The notes beneath the pieces were generated by a model, which was given only the letters and a program-made list of their open reading frames with translations, had not been told where the DNA came from and ran no database searches. A DNA stretch of 64,000 nt, from the IMG/VR virus record IMGVR_UViG_3300021399_003599. One strand, 5' to 3'. Each line of letters starts with the position of its first letter. Positions within the stretch are counted from its first letter, which is position 1. Shown one piece after another: positions 1,846 to 15,032 of this stretch. The stretch is from a virus. Its lineage: Duplodnaviria > Caudoviricetes. The position numbers and the translations under genes were made by a program.

Positions 1846-2198
1846 TGTTTCACCCGCCGCCCACATCCGGGACAAAGGGGCTTTAGATTAAGCTTCGTAT
1901 TGTCTTGATCGCAACTCCGCGGCTCTATGTGCGGATAACCGCACTTCGAGCAGCGCCACTTATCATAAAGTGCGTTGCTATACTCTAGCACCCACTCGCA
2001 TCTATCGTCCCCTAACGTTACTTCGATTACTTGCTCAGGGGTAAGAATGGTCGAGCAAACTAGCCCATCACGACTCTGTACAAACGTTACGTCAATACCA
2101 TTAGCGCTAAATTTCGTGCTCGTAGCACCAGTTATGCCATAATCCCATTCCACGCCCTTCTCATCGAGCAGGCGGCGCAGCTCGTCAATTACTATCAT
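1842..2198 (-). CDS. hypothetical protein with C-terminal zinc ribbon
   Basis: CSKC...CPGC; overlapping gene chain. Confidence 0.7.
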   Translation of the reverse strand: MIVIDELRRLLDEKGVEWDYGITGATSTKFSANGIDVTFVQSRDGLVCSTILTPEQVIEVTLGDDRCEWVLEYSNALYDKWRCSKCGYPHIEPRSCDQDNTKLNLKPLCPGCGRRVKQ

Positions 2199-2383
2199 AG
2201 ATATTCCCTACTAAGTGTTTTGATCGTGGCAACTATAATAGCAGACGCAGCTACCGATCTACATGCATACGCCGTAACTTCCTCTGTGCTCACAGATTTA
2301 AGGCTCTCCTTATAATCATCAATAGCATTTCCTAAAAGATTTAATATTTGATTTTCGACCGCTTCGACTTCAGGATCATTCAT
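2195..2383 (-). CDS. hypothetical protein
   Basis: GAGGAG SD; in operon. Confidence 0.65.
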   Translation of the reverse strand: MNDPEVEAVENQILNLLGNAIDDYKESLKSVSTEEVTAYACRSVAASAIIVATIKTLSREYL

Positions 2384-2398
2384 AGTTGCTCCTCTATC

Positions 2399-2707
2399 TC
2401 ATCGATTACCAACTCTTACCCAACTATTCCATCGACGCTCTGTTTCTTCTTTACTTACGCGCATCTTAAATCTTAGTCCGCAACTACACACAATTGAACC
2501 GTTCACCCAACAAACAGATCGACCGCATAATGGGCAAGGTTTCAGGTCATCAAGTACATTTAGCCAACCCATCTGCCAACATCGAAACAAGATGTTGTCA
2601 ATAACAGCCATCTCATCGGGGCTATCACTAATATTAGTGTTCTCGATCAGCAGCTCTTTTGCTTTATTGATCAGCTCGAATCGGCTATCGATTATAGCGT
2701 CGCTCAT
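2399..2707 (-). CDS. hypothetical protein with C-terminal Lar-like zinc ribbon
   Basis: LKPCPLCG...CSCG...ERRWN; ATGA overlap start at 2707. Confidence 0.65.
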   Translation of the reverse strand: MSDAIIDSRFELINKAKELLIENTNISDSPDEMAVIDNILFRCWQMGWLNVLDDLKPCPLCGRSVCWVNGSIVCSCGLRFKMRVSKEETERRWNSWVRVGNR

Positions 2708-2895
2708 CTGCACCACTGTCCTTTTTCTGACCTAGCTTTTGCTTCATCACGGGTCAAAGTCCATCCTGTCCACTGTCTACAAGAAGTACAACACCCGCTC
2801 CAAAGCTTGGTGCGGGCATCGTAAGTAAGAATCAAAGTTCCATTTATAAAATTATGTTTACAAGTAGGACGATCATAGTTTTTAATTTCAATCAT
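2704..2895 (-). CDS. hypothetical protein
   Basis: TAATG coupling to upstream gene. Confidence 0.6.
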   Translation of the reverse strand: MIEIKNYDRPTCKHNFINGTLILTYDARTKLWSGCCTSCRQWTGWTLTRDEAKARSEKGQWCR

Positions 2896-3149
2896 TATAA
2901 CTCCTGAGCAAGTTCATACATCCTTATCACAGCATATTCTGTATCTATCCGAGTCATCCAGAAAGGAGCTTTTTCTCCGACATAAAGAGTATCCATAGAA
3001 GCCTGCATCCCACTTGGAAAAAGCTTTAAGTAAGCTTTTTCTGGATATCCTTTAGACCATATCTCTACACCGTGGGGCTCATATAGCTTTTCTAGTTGCC
3101 ACCCAGAGAGTTGAAGATTTCGTATACCAGGTGTAATATTAATATTCAT
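2895..3149 (-). CDS. hypothetical protein (probable start MNINITPG)
   Basis: GGAGG SD upstream of ATG 3149. Confidence 0.6.
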   Translation of the reverse strand: MNINITPGIRNLQLSGWQLEKLYEPHGVEIWSKGYPEKAYLKLFPSGMQASMDTLYVGEKAPFWMTRIDTEYAVIRMYELAQEL

Positions 3150-3589: not shown

Positions 3590-3620
3590 CTTCTTTCCTT
3601 TCCTTACTTTCTATAAATAT

Positions 3621-3649
3621 ATTATATCATAAAAAAGAACGCCCGTCAA
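3621..3649 (-). promoter_or_regulatory. sigma70-type promoter TTGACG-17-TATAAT
   Basis: consensus boxes with 17-nt spacer; same motif recurs about 20 times in the window. Confidence 0.8.
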
Positions 3650-3672
3650 GTAGAAACTTGACGAGCGTTCTT
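3635..3672 (-). terminator. intrinsic terminator hairpin that contains the -35 box of the next promoter
   Basis: AAGAACGCTCGTCAAGT-TTCT-ACTTGACGGGCGTTCTT followed by T tract. Confidence 0.7.
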
Positions 3673-3673
3673 G

Positions 3674-3868
3674 CTAAGTCTTCTTTTTCTTATTCTCAAA
3701 TTTTTGTTCAAAATAATAATATATATCTTCTATACTCCAGTCTCGAGAATCAAACCATGCCACTATAATAGTTACGATTAATACAAAAAGACCAAGGAAA
3801 AAAACCGTACTAAAAGCACCTAGAAGAAGAAGACCAAGTGTCGAAATAATATTTGTAACTATATCCAT
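3674..3868 (-). CDS. small membrane protein
   Basis: long hydrophobic N-terminal segment. Confidence 0.65.
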   Translation of the reverse strand: MDIVTNIISTLGLLLLGAFSTVFFLGLFVLIVTIIVAWFDSRDWSIEDIYYYFEQKFENKKKKT

Positions 3869-4103: not shown

Positions 4104-5234
4104 TTAATAATCTATATCAGTATAGTTAAAAGGACAAAGATCATCAATCTTACCGTACTTGCGGGCAGCGAACAAAAACTTCTTGTGCTTAGAATAGAGA
4201 GGATCACCTAAAACCTTGAGAGCATACTCCTTCTGAGTTCGATCGTTGTACAAGACAAGAGCTGAATTCCAAAGAGAAGCCATGTGATAAATCTTATACA
4301 AATGACGATCTACGACATTCTTAACCTCCTCAATGTTAGCCATAACATCATCTGAAAAACCAAAGACCTTGAGATCATGATGGTTCGAGTACTCAAGCCA
4401 CTGCGCGAAGTTAGTCTTCTCTAACTCCGCAATAAATCCCTTGTCCCAGTTATAACGCAGAGCCCGCAGGGCAAGATAAGAATCCTGCTTAAACTTAATC
4501 AGCTTTCCATCGAAGAAATGAATAACCATTCCCTCAGCGTTCTCTCGCTCAGGAAGAGCAAGAGCCTCCCCAAGAGTCTCACAGTTTAGACGCTGGGCAA
4601 CAGAAAATCCATTCTGCTCCCACTCAGAATTGAGTAAGCATCCCTCAGTCCAACTTCCCGTCTCGATATCAACATAACCAAGAAGAACAATGTCTCGGTG
4701 CGGATAATGAATTACATGCTCCTCGGGATCCAATAGCTCAAACAGAAAAGTCTTGTGCGGGAAACGCTCTATCATGTGCTTCGCGCACATATACATTCGA
4801 CTATTGGAATGAAGGAACTCAGTAAACGACAAAGCAATCTCACTATCAAGGCGTCCGCGAGTAGAAAGAGCCGGCTCTCCGTTGTCATCCCACAGAATGC
4901 CCAGAGAACCATCAAGCTTATCTACAGCAATTACATTAGCATTAAAGTTAGGCTTAAAAGTAGACTCAAAGCTTCCCTCCTCATCGCAGAGATGATAGGT
5001 TCCCTGCTCCTGCTCAATGGTGAAAAACTTAGCGAAAGGTCGAGCAATAACGTTATCGTTCTTATCGCAGATCAACCCACGACACACCGTGGTCTCTATC
5101 GTCCAGTATCCATCATAGGTAGCCTTAGGAGTATAATTATAAATAACCTTATCGTGATACTCACGAGCAGTGATGTACCCGTTCTCAATGTCCTCACGAA
5201 GCTTCTGAATGTTAACAAGCTGATCGAGCTTCAT
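4104..5234 (-). CDS. T4 Rnl1/RnlA-like RNA ligase
   Basis: IYNY...CRGLI...ARPFAKFF; motif I KLDGSLG; STRG; TFLFEL; motif IV EGMVI; IKFK. Confidence 0.9.
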   Translation of the reverse strand: MKLDQLVNIQKLREDIENGYITAREYHDKVIYNYTPKATYDGYWTIETTVCRGLICDKNDNVIARPFAKFFTIEQEQGTYHLCDEEGSFESTFKPNFNANVIAVDKLDGSLGILWDDNGEPALSTRGRLDSEIALSFTEFLHSNSRMYMCAKHMIERFPHKTFLFELLDPEEHVIHYPHRDIVLLGYVDIETGSWTEGCLLNSEWEQNGFSVAQRLNCETLGEALALPERENAEGMVIHFFDGKLIKFKQDSYLALRALRYNWDKGFIAELEKTNFAQWLEYSNHHDLKVFGFSDDVMANIEEVKNVVDRHLYKIYHMASLWNSALVLYNDRTQKEYALKVLGDPLYSKHKKFLFAARKYGKIDDLCPFNYTDIDY

Positions 5235-12278: not shown

Positions 12279-12295
12279 TTTTTCTCCATTAAAAA

Positions 12296-12559
12296 GTGAC
12301 TGAGGAGTTCCGCACGCTCCTCGCAAACCTGATGTTTATTTCTTCGTGCGGTGACACAGGCTTACCGCTTATAGCTCGTGCGCGCTATAGAAGAAGGACT
12401 TCCCTCTTGACAACGTGTAGGCAGGTGCCCCTCTAACCCTAACCTACGGAGGACCGGCGCCCTATTCTCGCCAGCCCACTCCCACAAGTATTCTTCCTCA
12501 TTAAACTAACCGCCCACGGAGGACAGTAAGGGACTCGAACCCTTATCCTTGTTTATAAA
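12296..12559 (-). ncRNA. circularly permuted tRNA-like domain fused to a structured 3' domain
   Basis: order: loop TTTATAA, ACAAG, T arm, acceptor hairpin ACTGTCC/GGGCGGT, D arm, CTTGT, then at least five hairpins. Confidence 0.65.
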
Positions 12560-12561
12560 CC

Positions 12562-12638
12562 TGGTGCGCTGTCTGGGATTCGAACCCAGGCTCTCTCGAT
12601 TAAGAGTCGATTGCTTTAACCAGCTAAGCTAACAGCGC
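12562..12638 (-). tRNA. tRNA-Lys(CTT)
   Basis: loop CT-CTT-AA; CCA. Confidence 0.92.
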
Positions 12639-12639
12639 A

Positions 12640-12715
12640 TGGTGCGTCCTGAGGGACTTGAACCCTCGCTCTTTGGATTAAAAGTCCACTGCTTTTCCAA
12701 CTAAGCTAAGGACAC
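12640..12715 (-). tRNA. tRNA-Lys(TTT)
   Basis: loop CT-TTT-AA; CCA. Confidence 0.92.
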
Positions 12716-12721
12716 AAAAAA

Positions 12722-12796
12722 TGGTCGCCCAGACGGGACTTGAACCCGTAATGTCTAGCTTATGGGGCTAGTGAGTTACCCTTACTCTACTGGGCA
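12722..12796 (-). tRNA. tRNA with CAT anticodon (Met-type), C33 variant
   Basis: loop CC-CAT-AA; U1.G72; CCA. Confidence 0.82.
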
Positions 12797-12800
12797 ATAA

Positions 12801-12878
12801 TGGTGGCGGAGGTCGGACTCGAACCGACATTAATCCTAGTTTATGAGACTAGTGAGTAGCCAATTACTCTACTCCGCA
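12801..12878 (-). tRNA. tRNA-Met(CAT), initiator-like 1:72 mismatch
   Basis: loop CT-CAT-AA; U1/C72 mismatch; CCA. Confidence 0.85.
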
Positions 12879-12883
12879 ATAAC

Positions 12884-12969
12884 TGGTGGGAGAGGTGAGA
12901 CTCGAACTCACACAACTAAAAGTTACTTGCTCCTTAGGCAAGCGCGCCTGCCAATTACGCCACACTCCC
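12884..12969 (-). tRNA. tRNA-Leu(AAG)
   Basis: loop CT-AAG-GA; long variable arm; A73; CCA. Confidence 0.9.
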
Positions 12970-12973
12970 GAGA

Positions 12974-13048
12974 TGGCTCTCCGAGTAGGGCTCGAACCTA
13001 CAACCCTGCGGTTAACAGCCGCATGCTCCACCATTGAGCTATCGGAGA
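12974..13048 (-). tRNA. tRNA-Asn(GTT)
   Basis: loop CT-GTT-AA; CCA. Confidence 0.93.
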
Positions 13049-13049
13049 A

Positions 13050-13134
13050 TGGTGCCCCCACCCGGACTCGAACCGGGACACCTTTCGGTAGCAGATTTTG
13101 AGTCTGCCGCGCCTGCCAATTACGCCATGGGGGC
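13050..13134 (-). tRNA. tRNA-Leu(CAA)
   Basis: loop CT-CAA-AA; long variable arm; CCA. Confidence 0.93.
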
Positions 13135-13150
13135 TTAATTTCTAAAATAT

Positions 13151-13179
13151 ATTATATCTTAAAAATTAAGTTTTGTCAA
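13151..13179 (-). promoter_or_regulatory. sigma70-type promoter for tRNA operon
   Basis: TTGACA-17-TATAAT. Confidence 0.8.
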
Positions 13180-13195: not shown

Positions 13196-13270
13196 TGGAG
13201 CTTCGTGGCGGTGCTGCCCCGCCGTCTGAGGTTTACAAGACCACTGTAATAGCTGTTATACTAACGAAGC
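13196..13270 (-). tRNA. tRNA-Thr(TGT) with non-canonical D and T loops
   Basis: loop CT-TGT-AA; T loop GGCAGCA; D loop lacks GG; CCA. Confidence 0.8.
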
Positions 13271-13333: not shown

Positions 13334-14776
13334 TTAACAGTACTTGTAGTTTGTATTGATATACTCTACAATACTGGTGTCGCTTGACTCCAATAGGTGA
13401 ATAAGATTGAAAATCTTCTCACTCAATGAAGTCAAAAGATGAACATTGGGGTTCTTAGGATTTGCTACCTGCGTATGATAATTACCTAGATCAAAGCTAT
13501 AACACTTACAATCACGATTATACTTCTTAGTATAACTATCAAAGCTGACAACTCCTCCACCCCAAGTATCCATAACCTGCATGTCGCTAACAATGAACAG
13601 TCGGTCATAGCGCTTCTTTAGCTGCTGAAAGGCTCCTCCAATTTCAGTCCCATAACCGAGACCGTCATTCTCGCACATATGATCAATGATTGAAAAAATA
13701 TTAACAAGCGGGTTATATCTATAAGTTTGAGCGTGAGTTCCAAACTTAACAAAAGTCAAATTTGGATTCTTAATATAAAGCATTGCCGCAAATACCGCTC
13801 CTACTTCCTTAATAGTGATGTTGCTTTTGGCGCTAATAAGATGTTCCATCGATCCAGAAACGTCCAAGAGAATAGCGGTATTACCTTCAAGAGAAGGAAC
13901 ATTCTGACAAGCAATTCGGAACGCCTTCTCCAGTGAATTCTGAACAACAGAAACACCAGGAGCATTTCGATATGCCTGATAAATTTGATAGGGGAAAACA
14001 AGCGACTTTAGAATGGCGGCTTCATTCTCAATCTGCGGGCACAGCCAATCCGTGATCCATTCAAAATTAATATTACCACAATTAAGAATGTTACGCAGAT
14101 TGCGGATAAGCGCTAGATAACCAAGCTTATGCTCTTCTACAAGACGCTTCCACTCTGCATCCTTCTCCTCAGGAGCAGCAGTTGAGATAGCAACCTCCCA
14201 AGTATCAGCCTTGGGTAGCGCATCATGCTTATAGGCGTTAATTGCGGGCGACGTAACGTGGGTAAGATTAATCAGATCATACATATTATACTGCTTACCA
14301 TTCATCTTATACTTTCCAAGAGAATGGATATTGAGAGTAGACAGATAATCTCCCGCTCCGCGCACAAGTGCGTGAGAGCGCTTACCGTTACCCATATTTT
14401 CAATAATTGAAAACACTTCTGCTACATCGTCTGGACGATGGAAGAAATTGCTAAAGTACATCCGCTTATTTTCGAACTGAACACTGTTAAGCATCGCGGC
14501 AGTGACCTGAGCGATTGACCGCATACCGAGCTCATTGCGGGCAAAGAAGCTGGCTCGTGCAACAAACTCCCAACCACACTCTTGGGCTACTTGCTCAGTA
14601 AGCTCGATATATCGGGCTAGCTGCTTGTCTGAAGTCTCATAGAATCGATCTTCAATATAGGAACTAAAAAGGAAATTAAGCCACTCACTAACAGGAGACT
14701 TAACATAATTAAGTCCACCTTCATAGCTATACTCTCGAGTAGCTTCGGCAATCTGCTTGGAATTAAACTTTGACAT
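13334..14776 (-). CDS. Ro60/TROVE-domain RNA-binding protein with vWA domain
   Basis: YEGG, FARNELGMRS, LGYLALIRNLRNI, SLVFPYQIYQAY; MIDAS LDVSGSM and IVSDMQ. Confidence 0.93.
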   Translation of the reverse strand: MSKFNSKQIAEATREYSYEGGLNYVKSPVSEWLNFLFSSYIEDRFYETSDKQLARYIELTEQVAQECGWEFVARASFFARNELGMRSIAQVTAAMLNSVQFENKRMYFSNFFHRPDDVAEVFSIIENMGNGKRSHALVRGAGDYLSTLNIHSLGKYKMNGKQYNMYDLINLTHVTSPAINAYKHDALPKADTWEVAISTAAPEEKDAEWKRLVEEHKLGYLALIRNLRNILNCGNINFEWITDWLCPQIENEAAILKSLVFPYQIYQAYRNAPGVSVVQNSLEKAFRIACQNVPSLEGNTAILLDVSGSMEHLISAKSNITIKEVGAVFAAMLYIKNPNLTFVKFGTHAQTYRYNPLVNIFSIIDHMCENDGLGYGTEIGGAFQQLKKRYDRLFIVSDMQVMDTWGGGVVSFDSYTKKYNRDCKCYSFDLGNYHTQVANPKNPNVHLLTSLSEKIFNLIHLLESSDTSIVEYINTNYKYC

Positions 14777-14816: not shown

Positions 14817-14905
14817 AAGTGCGGATATTCTTTGTTTAGTTTATTTGTTCCTAAGATAAATTCCTATGTTTATTTTAGAAGTAACTAAACAACTATCACG
14901 CACTT
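14817..14905 (-). ncRNA. Y-RNA-like ncRNA copy 2
   Basis: AAGTGCG-T-GATA-G-TTGTTTAGT-TACTTC...ACTAAACAA-AGAA-TATC-CGCACTT. Confidence 0.8.
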
Positions 14906-14916
14906 AACACAAAATA

Positions 14917-15019
14917 TCGTGGAAATGCTTTAATTGGTTTGATTTGATTTAAAGGGTCTTGCTCTTTTTAAAGTAATATTTCCATAAAATATTGAAGTAA
15001 CCAATTAACTATCACACGA
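14917..15019 (-). ncRNA. Y-RNA-like ncRNA copy 3
   Basis: TCGTG-T-GATA-G-TTAATTGGT-TACTTC...ACCAATTAA-AGCA-TTTC-CACGA. Confidence 0.8.
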
Positions 15020-15032
15020 AGACTAACCACTT

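Follow-up and report, generated by a model that had tools for sequence, protein, structure and literature searches.

What kind of RNA occupies the interval between the last gene of a phage tRNA array and the nucleotidyltransferase gene that follows it? The DNA analysed here (the window, 64,000 nt) is part of a phage genome of ~145 kb in which 19 tRNA genes were called, and the identical sequence is present in L001. A first-pass annotation read the minus strand at 12296-12559 as a circularly permuted tRNA-like domain fused to a 190-nt structured RNA, and proposed either a new tRNA mimic or a precursor circularized by a phage RNA ligase.

All elements of the permuted cloverleaf were found where that annotation had placed them, with the 3′ half of the tRNA first and the molecule opened at the anticodon loop. 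The 69-nt module (12484..12552, minus strand) is tRNA-Ala-like but has no anticodon. A closing stem (ACAAG at 12552-12548, CUUGU at 12488-12484) takes the place of the anticodon arm, and it encloses, in order, a 3-nt GAU linker, a T arm (12528..12544; 5-bp stem, UUCGAGU loop), an acceptor hairpin (12509..12527; ACUGUCC, loop UCCGU, GGGCGGU) and a D arm (12490..12506) with a 4-bp tRNA-type stem, GUUU/GAAU. The acceptor contains the G3.U70 pair seen at first pass (12513 and 12523) and also a second wobble pair, G5.U68 (12511 and 12525). CCA is absent, as had been claimed; U73 followed by CCG stands in place of A73-CCA. The module does come right after a tRNA-Lys gene: the CCA of tRNA-Lys(CUU) and the closing stem are separated by a spacer of just 9 nt (12553..12561) that contains UUUAUAA. 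After the module, on the same strand, come a GC-rich 190-nt region (12293..12483) and a gene for an RlaP-family nucleotidyltransferase (PF10127; 11526..12278).

Seven tRNA genes (Leu, Asn, Leu, Met, Met, Lys and Lys; 12562..13134, minus strand) are predicted to share the transcript of the module, which probably starts at a sigma-70-type promoter at 13151..13179 (minus strand). The perfect match at this promoter, together with the absence of a terminator-like site downstream of the module, suggests that one transcript runs from the seven tRNAs through the module and the 190-nt region to rlaP. A tRNA-Thr(UGU) gene with an atypical T loop (13196-13270, minus strand) is missed by both ARAGORN and Rfam; at the equivalent position of L308 a tRNA-Thr is called. 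The module region is absent from the nearest virus record, G001 (a 19% fragment).

The module alone folds no better than shuffled sequences (z −0.93), and the Rfam model for YrlA (RF02553) gives it 14.0-18.5 bits against a gathering score of 69, about the score of an ordinary tRNA pair on the same model (16.9 bits). Homologues were therefore needed to establish it. The checks named at first pass, ARAGORN in tmRNA mode and Rfam cmscan, assigned it to no known family, and at gathering and E-value thresholds Rfam had none for either the module or the 190-nt region. Because it escapes both programs, such a module is missed in annotations of tRNA arrays.

A family of permuted modules with a recurrent acceptor stem

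BLAST against phages and plasmids returned nothing meaningful. The search patterns were confined to the acceptor strands plus the beginning of the D arm, and the T arm was not part of the query. An acceptor-only pattern gave 47 matches (9 viral, 37 metagenomic and 1 genomic), with one match among 185,579 prokaryotic genomes; a T loop and stem stand at the exact offset in 46 of the 47, across 16 unrelated flank groups. On these comparisons, the window module is one member of a conserved family of putative phage RNAs. A free-standing permuted family of alanine type was not described in the literature that we searched, the coverage of which was incomplete. Model R1 was built with the window copy included, and its 63-bit score is not independent evidence.

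Covariation shows the secondary structure. The T stem carries compensatory changes at all five pairs, with which RNAalifold agrees, and a closing stem of at least five pairs forms with 83% of own flanks but with 16% of cross-matched flanks. The D stem is a 4-bp GUUU/RRAY helix throughout the family. Neither the UUUAUAA loop nor the 5′ flank is conserved across the family, and in some members a single base separates the start from the upstream tRNA. A comparison of strains of this phage showed zero variable sites in 79, and this, together with the covariation, excludes decay to an inert remnant. The homologues and their covariation support the first-pass idea of a new tRNA mimic with the topology of YrlA, G3.U70 and no Ro-binding helix, and widen it to a phage family.

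The 7-bp acceptor in the family is GGGCGGU/ACUGUCC. Ordinary phage tRNAs with this stem are tRNA-Ala in 19 of 19 distinct cases, all with A73, and by this comparison the module is a permuted tRNA-Ala derivative. Its ancestor was probably a phage tRNA-Ala(UGC) with the same stem: the genes in L240-L263 share with it the identical 7-bp acceptor and a UAG at the start of the D arm, whereas in the module the halves are swapped, the anticodon loop is lost and a capping loop replaces A73-CCA. The acceptor type of L240-L263 is itself a phage tRNA-Ala type with two G.U pairs.

Counts of acceptor invariance come largely from patterns that fix the acceptor sequence. A pattern permitting Watson–Crick alternatives retained both G.U pairs in 9 of 9 matches, and one with a free acceptor turned up this stem in five phages unrelated to one another, together with permuted modules that have different stems. 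Close variants in L187, L191 and L308 have drifted or valine-like acceptors, so alanine identity is not required by every free-standing module. A helix with a fixed sequence, on which the loop and the other stems drift, implies that the helix is read sequence-specifically. In a sample of 301 bacterial genomes from one phylum, no tRNA was found with this acceptor type; on that sample, the tRNA-Ala that the module copies is of phage rather than host type, which fits poorly with a decoy for toxins that attack host tRNA.

Other permuted modules were seen along the way. The L308 copy (4455-4530, plus strand) is free-standing and has its own promoter; its T arm is degenerate and its acceptor, with G3-C70 and U4-A69, is valine-like. 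Several 140-kb phages (L266, L267, L272-L274 and L277) have promoter-proximal permuted modules whose acceptor stems vary freely and which share a conserved downstream region.

The acceptor end and its possible roles

Position 73 is U or C in 31 of 34 members and A in 1 of 34, and in 29 of 34 it pairs with position −1 to form an eighth pair. CCA occurs in none of the 34. Acceptor loops of 4-6 nt predominate, capped in a UUCG- or GNRA-like manner, and 4-nt UUCG or UUUG caps are present in 4 of 34. To judge from its sequence, the acceptor end looks sealed, and the capping loops and the lost A73 favour a ligand or decoy that stays uncharged.

We tentatively favour the view that the module is a sealed, non-chargeable look-alike of tRNA-Ala that binds an acceptor-reading protein. 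It would have arisen by circular permutation of a phage tRNA-Ala gene, would be transcribed together with the tRNA cluster, as the promoter suggests, and would have its 5′ end released by the processing of tRNA-Lys. By analogy with YrlA, it may adopt the tRNA L shape, with a T/D elbow and an acceptor helix but no anticodon loop. If its acceptor end is sealed in vivo, the module would be neither charged nor consumed, and could occupy, as a stable ligand or decoy, a protein that recognizes the alanine acceptor helix by its sequence; candidate partners are host AlaRS, some other enzyme that reads acceptors, for example a defence toxin modifying tRNA ends, and a phage protein. AlaRS alone would not need all seven acceptor pairs to be fixed, a point against this view. 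The 190-nt region would be a co-transcribed neighbour in this lineage, outside the family. A decoy, if true, would be an RNA-only route by which phages handle host tRNA enzymes. That several kinds of phage encode a protein-free RNA sponge, a portable module whose sealed alanine acceptor helix acts against a specific host enzyme that reads acceptors, be it AlaRS or a tRNA-end-attacking defence toxin, is possible if doubtful; if true, it would represent RNA counter-defence or translation control apart from Y RNAs and tmRNA. The partner of the module and its fate, sealed or opened and charged, are approachable with one short transcript and two point variants.

The hairpin might instead be a precursor, although we consider this unlikely. 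RNase P would cut at G1, the loop would be trimmed, a host enzyme or an RlaP-type enzyme would add CCA, and AlaRS would charge the resulting two-piece, anticodon-less alanine acceptor, which could then act like a message-less tmRNA or as an alanine donor outside decoding. AlaRS ignores the anticodon, and the acceptor is exactly 7 bp long with G3.U70. YrlA of M. smegmatis is cleaved by RNase P at its 7-bp acceptor and gains CCA (PMC4201824), which speaks for processing and against a sealed end, and RlaP adds nucleotides to damaged RNA 3′ ends (PMC12776372). Moreover, L002, the closest relative, lacks the module and has in the equivalent cluster an 80-nt message-less tmRNA (4285-4364, plus strand; 71 bits on RF00023), as does DS6A (PMC4131195). 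The same proposal has to contend with an A73 that survives in 1 of 34 members as against 19 of 19 parent tRNAs, with the eighth pair and the 4-nt caps, and with an RlaP gene that neighbours the module in one lineage only. In two carriers, L086 and L087, the module coexists with a full tmRNA, which counts against a tmRNA-like substitute and led us to reject mutual exclusion of module and tmRNA.

Message-less tmRNAs (DS6A; PMC4131195, PMC11915505; also L002) resemble the module as small phage RNAs in tRNA clusters, with G3.U70 and neither anticodon nor tag, but their order is unpermuted and they have A73-CCA and a D loop of tmRNA type, whereas the module is permuted and apparently sealed, with a tRNA D stem and a tRNA-Ala-derived acceptor. 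L296 also has a message-less tmRNA, of the DS6A form (64 bits on RF00023).

Genomic contexts and the phage Ro60 locus

The module is found in several settings. It is flanked by tRNA genes on both sides in L086, L087, L109, L112 and L122, and has its own promoter in L041, L091, L104 and L117; a structural scan of Ro60 loci had shown the same acceptor hairpin, without a tail, in L041. In L083, whose 40-kb phage locus has no tRNAs, it is followed by a lysin-like gene. It also occurs inside other RNAs: a large non-coding RNA of L103 has ~77 extra bases, including the module, that its L091 homologue lacks, and CAGCAA-handle repeats are topped by the same alanine acceptor hairpin. Such grafting is what a generic protective or processing module would produce, in which the compact tRNA fold caps and stabilizes an attached RNA (here the 190-nt region or the rlaP message), and Chen et al. 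suggested nuclease protection for YrlA (PMC4201824). We regard this role as improbable, as it explains neither the copies with nothing attached nor a fixed acceptor sequence with two destabilizing G.U pairs.

The larger RNAs merit description of their own. CAGCAA-handle repeat RNAs with the alanine acceptor occur in the large phages L138, L142, L143, L150, L153, L154 and L161. In L085 (9100-9300, minus strand), L119 (2780-2960, plus strand) and L135 (12280-12470, minus strand), the module lies within a conserved ~170-nt RNA with an extra T-arm-like hairpin. The large structured RNA of L103 (2500-3200, minus strand) and L091 (~2150-2900, minus strand) is unannotated and matches nothing in Rfam; the alanine module is in the L103 copy, and the L091 copy has a different tRNA-like insert. 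An identification of the L103 RNA as ROOL was dropped, as neither Rfam nor BLAST confirmed it. L006 (~13650-14250) and L017 (~13720-14300, plus strand) share a further large non-coding RNA; it is conserved, contains a permuted tRNA module and matches no Rfam family at gathering score.

Upstream of the module, at a distance of 780 nt that takes in eight tRNA genes, lies a Ro60/Rsr-like gene with a TROVE and a weak vWA domain (13334..14776, minus strand); the first-pass annotation overlooked this gene, and also the tail-less module copies elsewhere. Like YrlA (RF02553; PMC4201824; bioRxiv 10.1101/312249), the module has the order T arm, closed acceptor stem-loop, D arm, lacks both an anticodon loop and a free CCA, and in this genome is near a Ro60 gene. 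It could thus be a Y RNA of the phage Ro60, a tRNA-like domain split from its Ro handle and still working in the Ro60 particle. Consistent with such a split, the first handle RNA of the relatives L004, L005, L014 and L057 bears a permuted tRNA domain, whereas the three tandem handle RNAs of this phage (GUGAUAG...UUACUUC...UUUCC; 14817..15133, minus strand), upstream of Ro60, have no tRNA-like module.

We nevertheless judge a Y RNA to be a distinctly poor candidate. A motif search of 12286-12561 found neither GNCGAAN0-1G nor the phage handle motif, in line with the earlier statement that the Ro-binding helix is absent. A Ro60 relative was found in one of three near-complete carrier genomes, and in 2 of 21 mostly partial records, and L132 carries a free module beside a handle-borne Y-like RNA. 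The handle RNAs at 14817-15133 are likelier Ro partners than the module and would be the Y RNAs of this phage; binding of Y-like RNAs by a phage Ro60 has been demonstrated for phiLo (PMC12135203). The module further differs from YrlA in its 69-nt length without Ro-binding helix or motif, in having a fixed acceptor and a free T stem where YrlA has conserved D and T stems and a free acceptor, and in carriers that do not regularly have Ro60. In YrlA, the tie to Ro60 is one obstacle to working out what the tRNA-like domain is for; the present family offers a YrlA-type fold as a stand-alone ~70-nt gene in many phages, with one fixed identity element.

The 190-nt region and the remaining alternatives

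The module does lie directly upstream of the RlaP gene, as first described, but this adjacency is limited to the present lineage, and L002 has RlaP without the module. The description of the module as fused to a 190-nt RNA fails for the family: the tail is missing from 15 of 16 flank groups, and several modules are bounded by tRNA genes or promoters. Across the loci compared, the module does not regularly occur with Ro60, RlaP or the 190-nt tail and is independent of all three.

The 190-nt region is probably a real RNA element, either a separate RNA or an rlaP leader, tied to the module family by nothing beyond the inferred co-transcription here. It has 56% GC against 36% for the genome, and its fold z is −2.16. 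Ten strain sequences differ at 2 of its 190 sites, compared with 9% in rlaP and 8-9% in the tRNA blocks, which points to selection; a recent sweep is possible. Variation among strains includes a 7-nt insertion in the first hairpin loop and a substitution that breaks a pair in the second hairpin, with no compensatory change in the region. The helices and the 6-nt loop complement proposed at first pass exist as sequence. The nested ensemble favours only the first two hairpins, with pair probabilities of 0.83 and 1.0; the junction, the two inner hairpins and the last hairpin reach 0.00-0.07. Leaving aside any kissing-loop bonus, the proposed 3′ fold is 12 kcal/mol less stable than the minimum. 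The junction might gain stability from two possible loop pairings, CGCACG/CGUGCG and AAGCCUG/CAGGUUU.

The exact 190-nt pattern had no match in viral contigs, nhmmer over all fetched loci returned strains of the same phage only, and 49 related virus records gave only chance matches of 15-23 nt. Resemblances to known RNAs were rejected in turn: an RNase P-like reading of GAGGGAAGUCC (its matches are unrelated and P2 is lacking), an HDV-like (theta) ribozyme (a descriptor search found no nested double pseudoknot P1-P4 with a catalytic C, and Rfam gave no hit), a hammerhead (the core is absent) and likenesses to cobalamin, SAH, c-di-AMP, pistol and SRP RNAs (no Rfam support).

Could the whole 264 nt form a two-piece tmRNA-like RNA, with the 190-nt part as the message piece and the tag VVKREVLLL? 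The module has the permuted order and G3.U70, along with a 3-nt GAU linker and a near-CCA loop; the tail is strain-conserved, with 2 of 190 sites variable while rlaP varies at 9%; and one tag-like frame has UA at −5/−4. Such a frame also appears in 15% of shuffles, however, no other member has such a tail, and neither ARAGORN nor the Rfam tmRNA models call the module (beta_tmRNA, 10.3 of 84 bits), which makes this reading very improbable. In tmRNA the D loop is stemless, for SmpB, unlike the family-wide 4-bp D stem of the module, and U73 is a further discrepancy. Known permuted two-piece tmRNAs (RF04321, RF01849-51) share the gene order and the alanine wobble pair with the module, which differs by its D stem and by having no A73-CCA and no conserved message piece. 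The module family is thus distinct from YrlA (in Ro-module, score and conservation pattern) and from tmRNA (in A73-CCA, D loop and models).

Least credible of all is a permuted tRNA gene that is circularized at the anticodon loop into a tRNA with anticodon UAU, or an inert recombination remnant: despite the UUUAUAA before the closing stem and an Rnl1-type ligase gene at 4104-5234, the loop is unconserved and in some members a single base precedes the stem, an alanine acceptor with an isoleucine anticodon would mistranslate, the phage already carries tRNA-Ile(UAU), and covariation and strain invariance speak against a remnant. The ligase-circularized precursor offered at first pass is likewise not supported, and the module differs from circularly permuted tRNA genes in its unconserved flanks, down to one base, which on joining give no complete conserved anticodon loop. 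A tRNA-like gene of another build is present in L002 (~3590-3750, plus strand), where an insert of ~100 nt takes the place of the anticodon arm.
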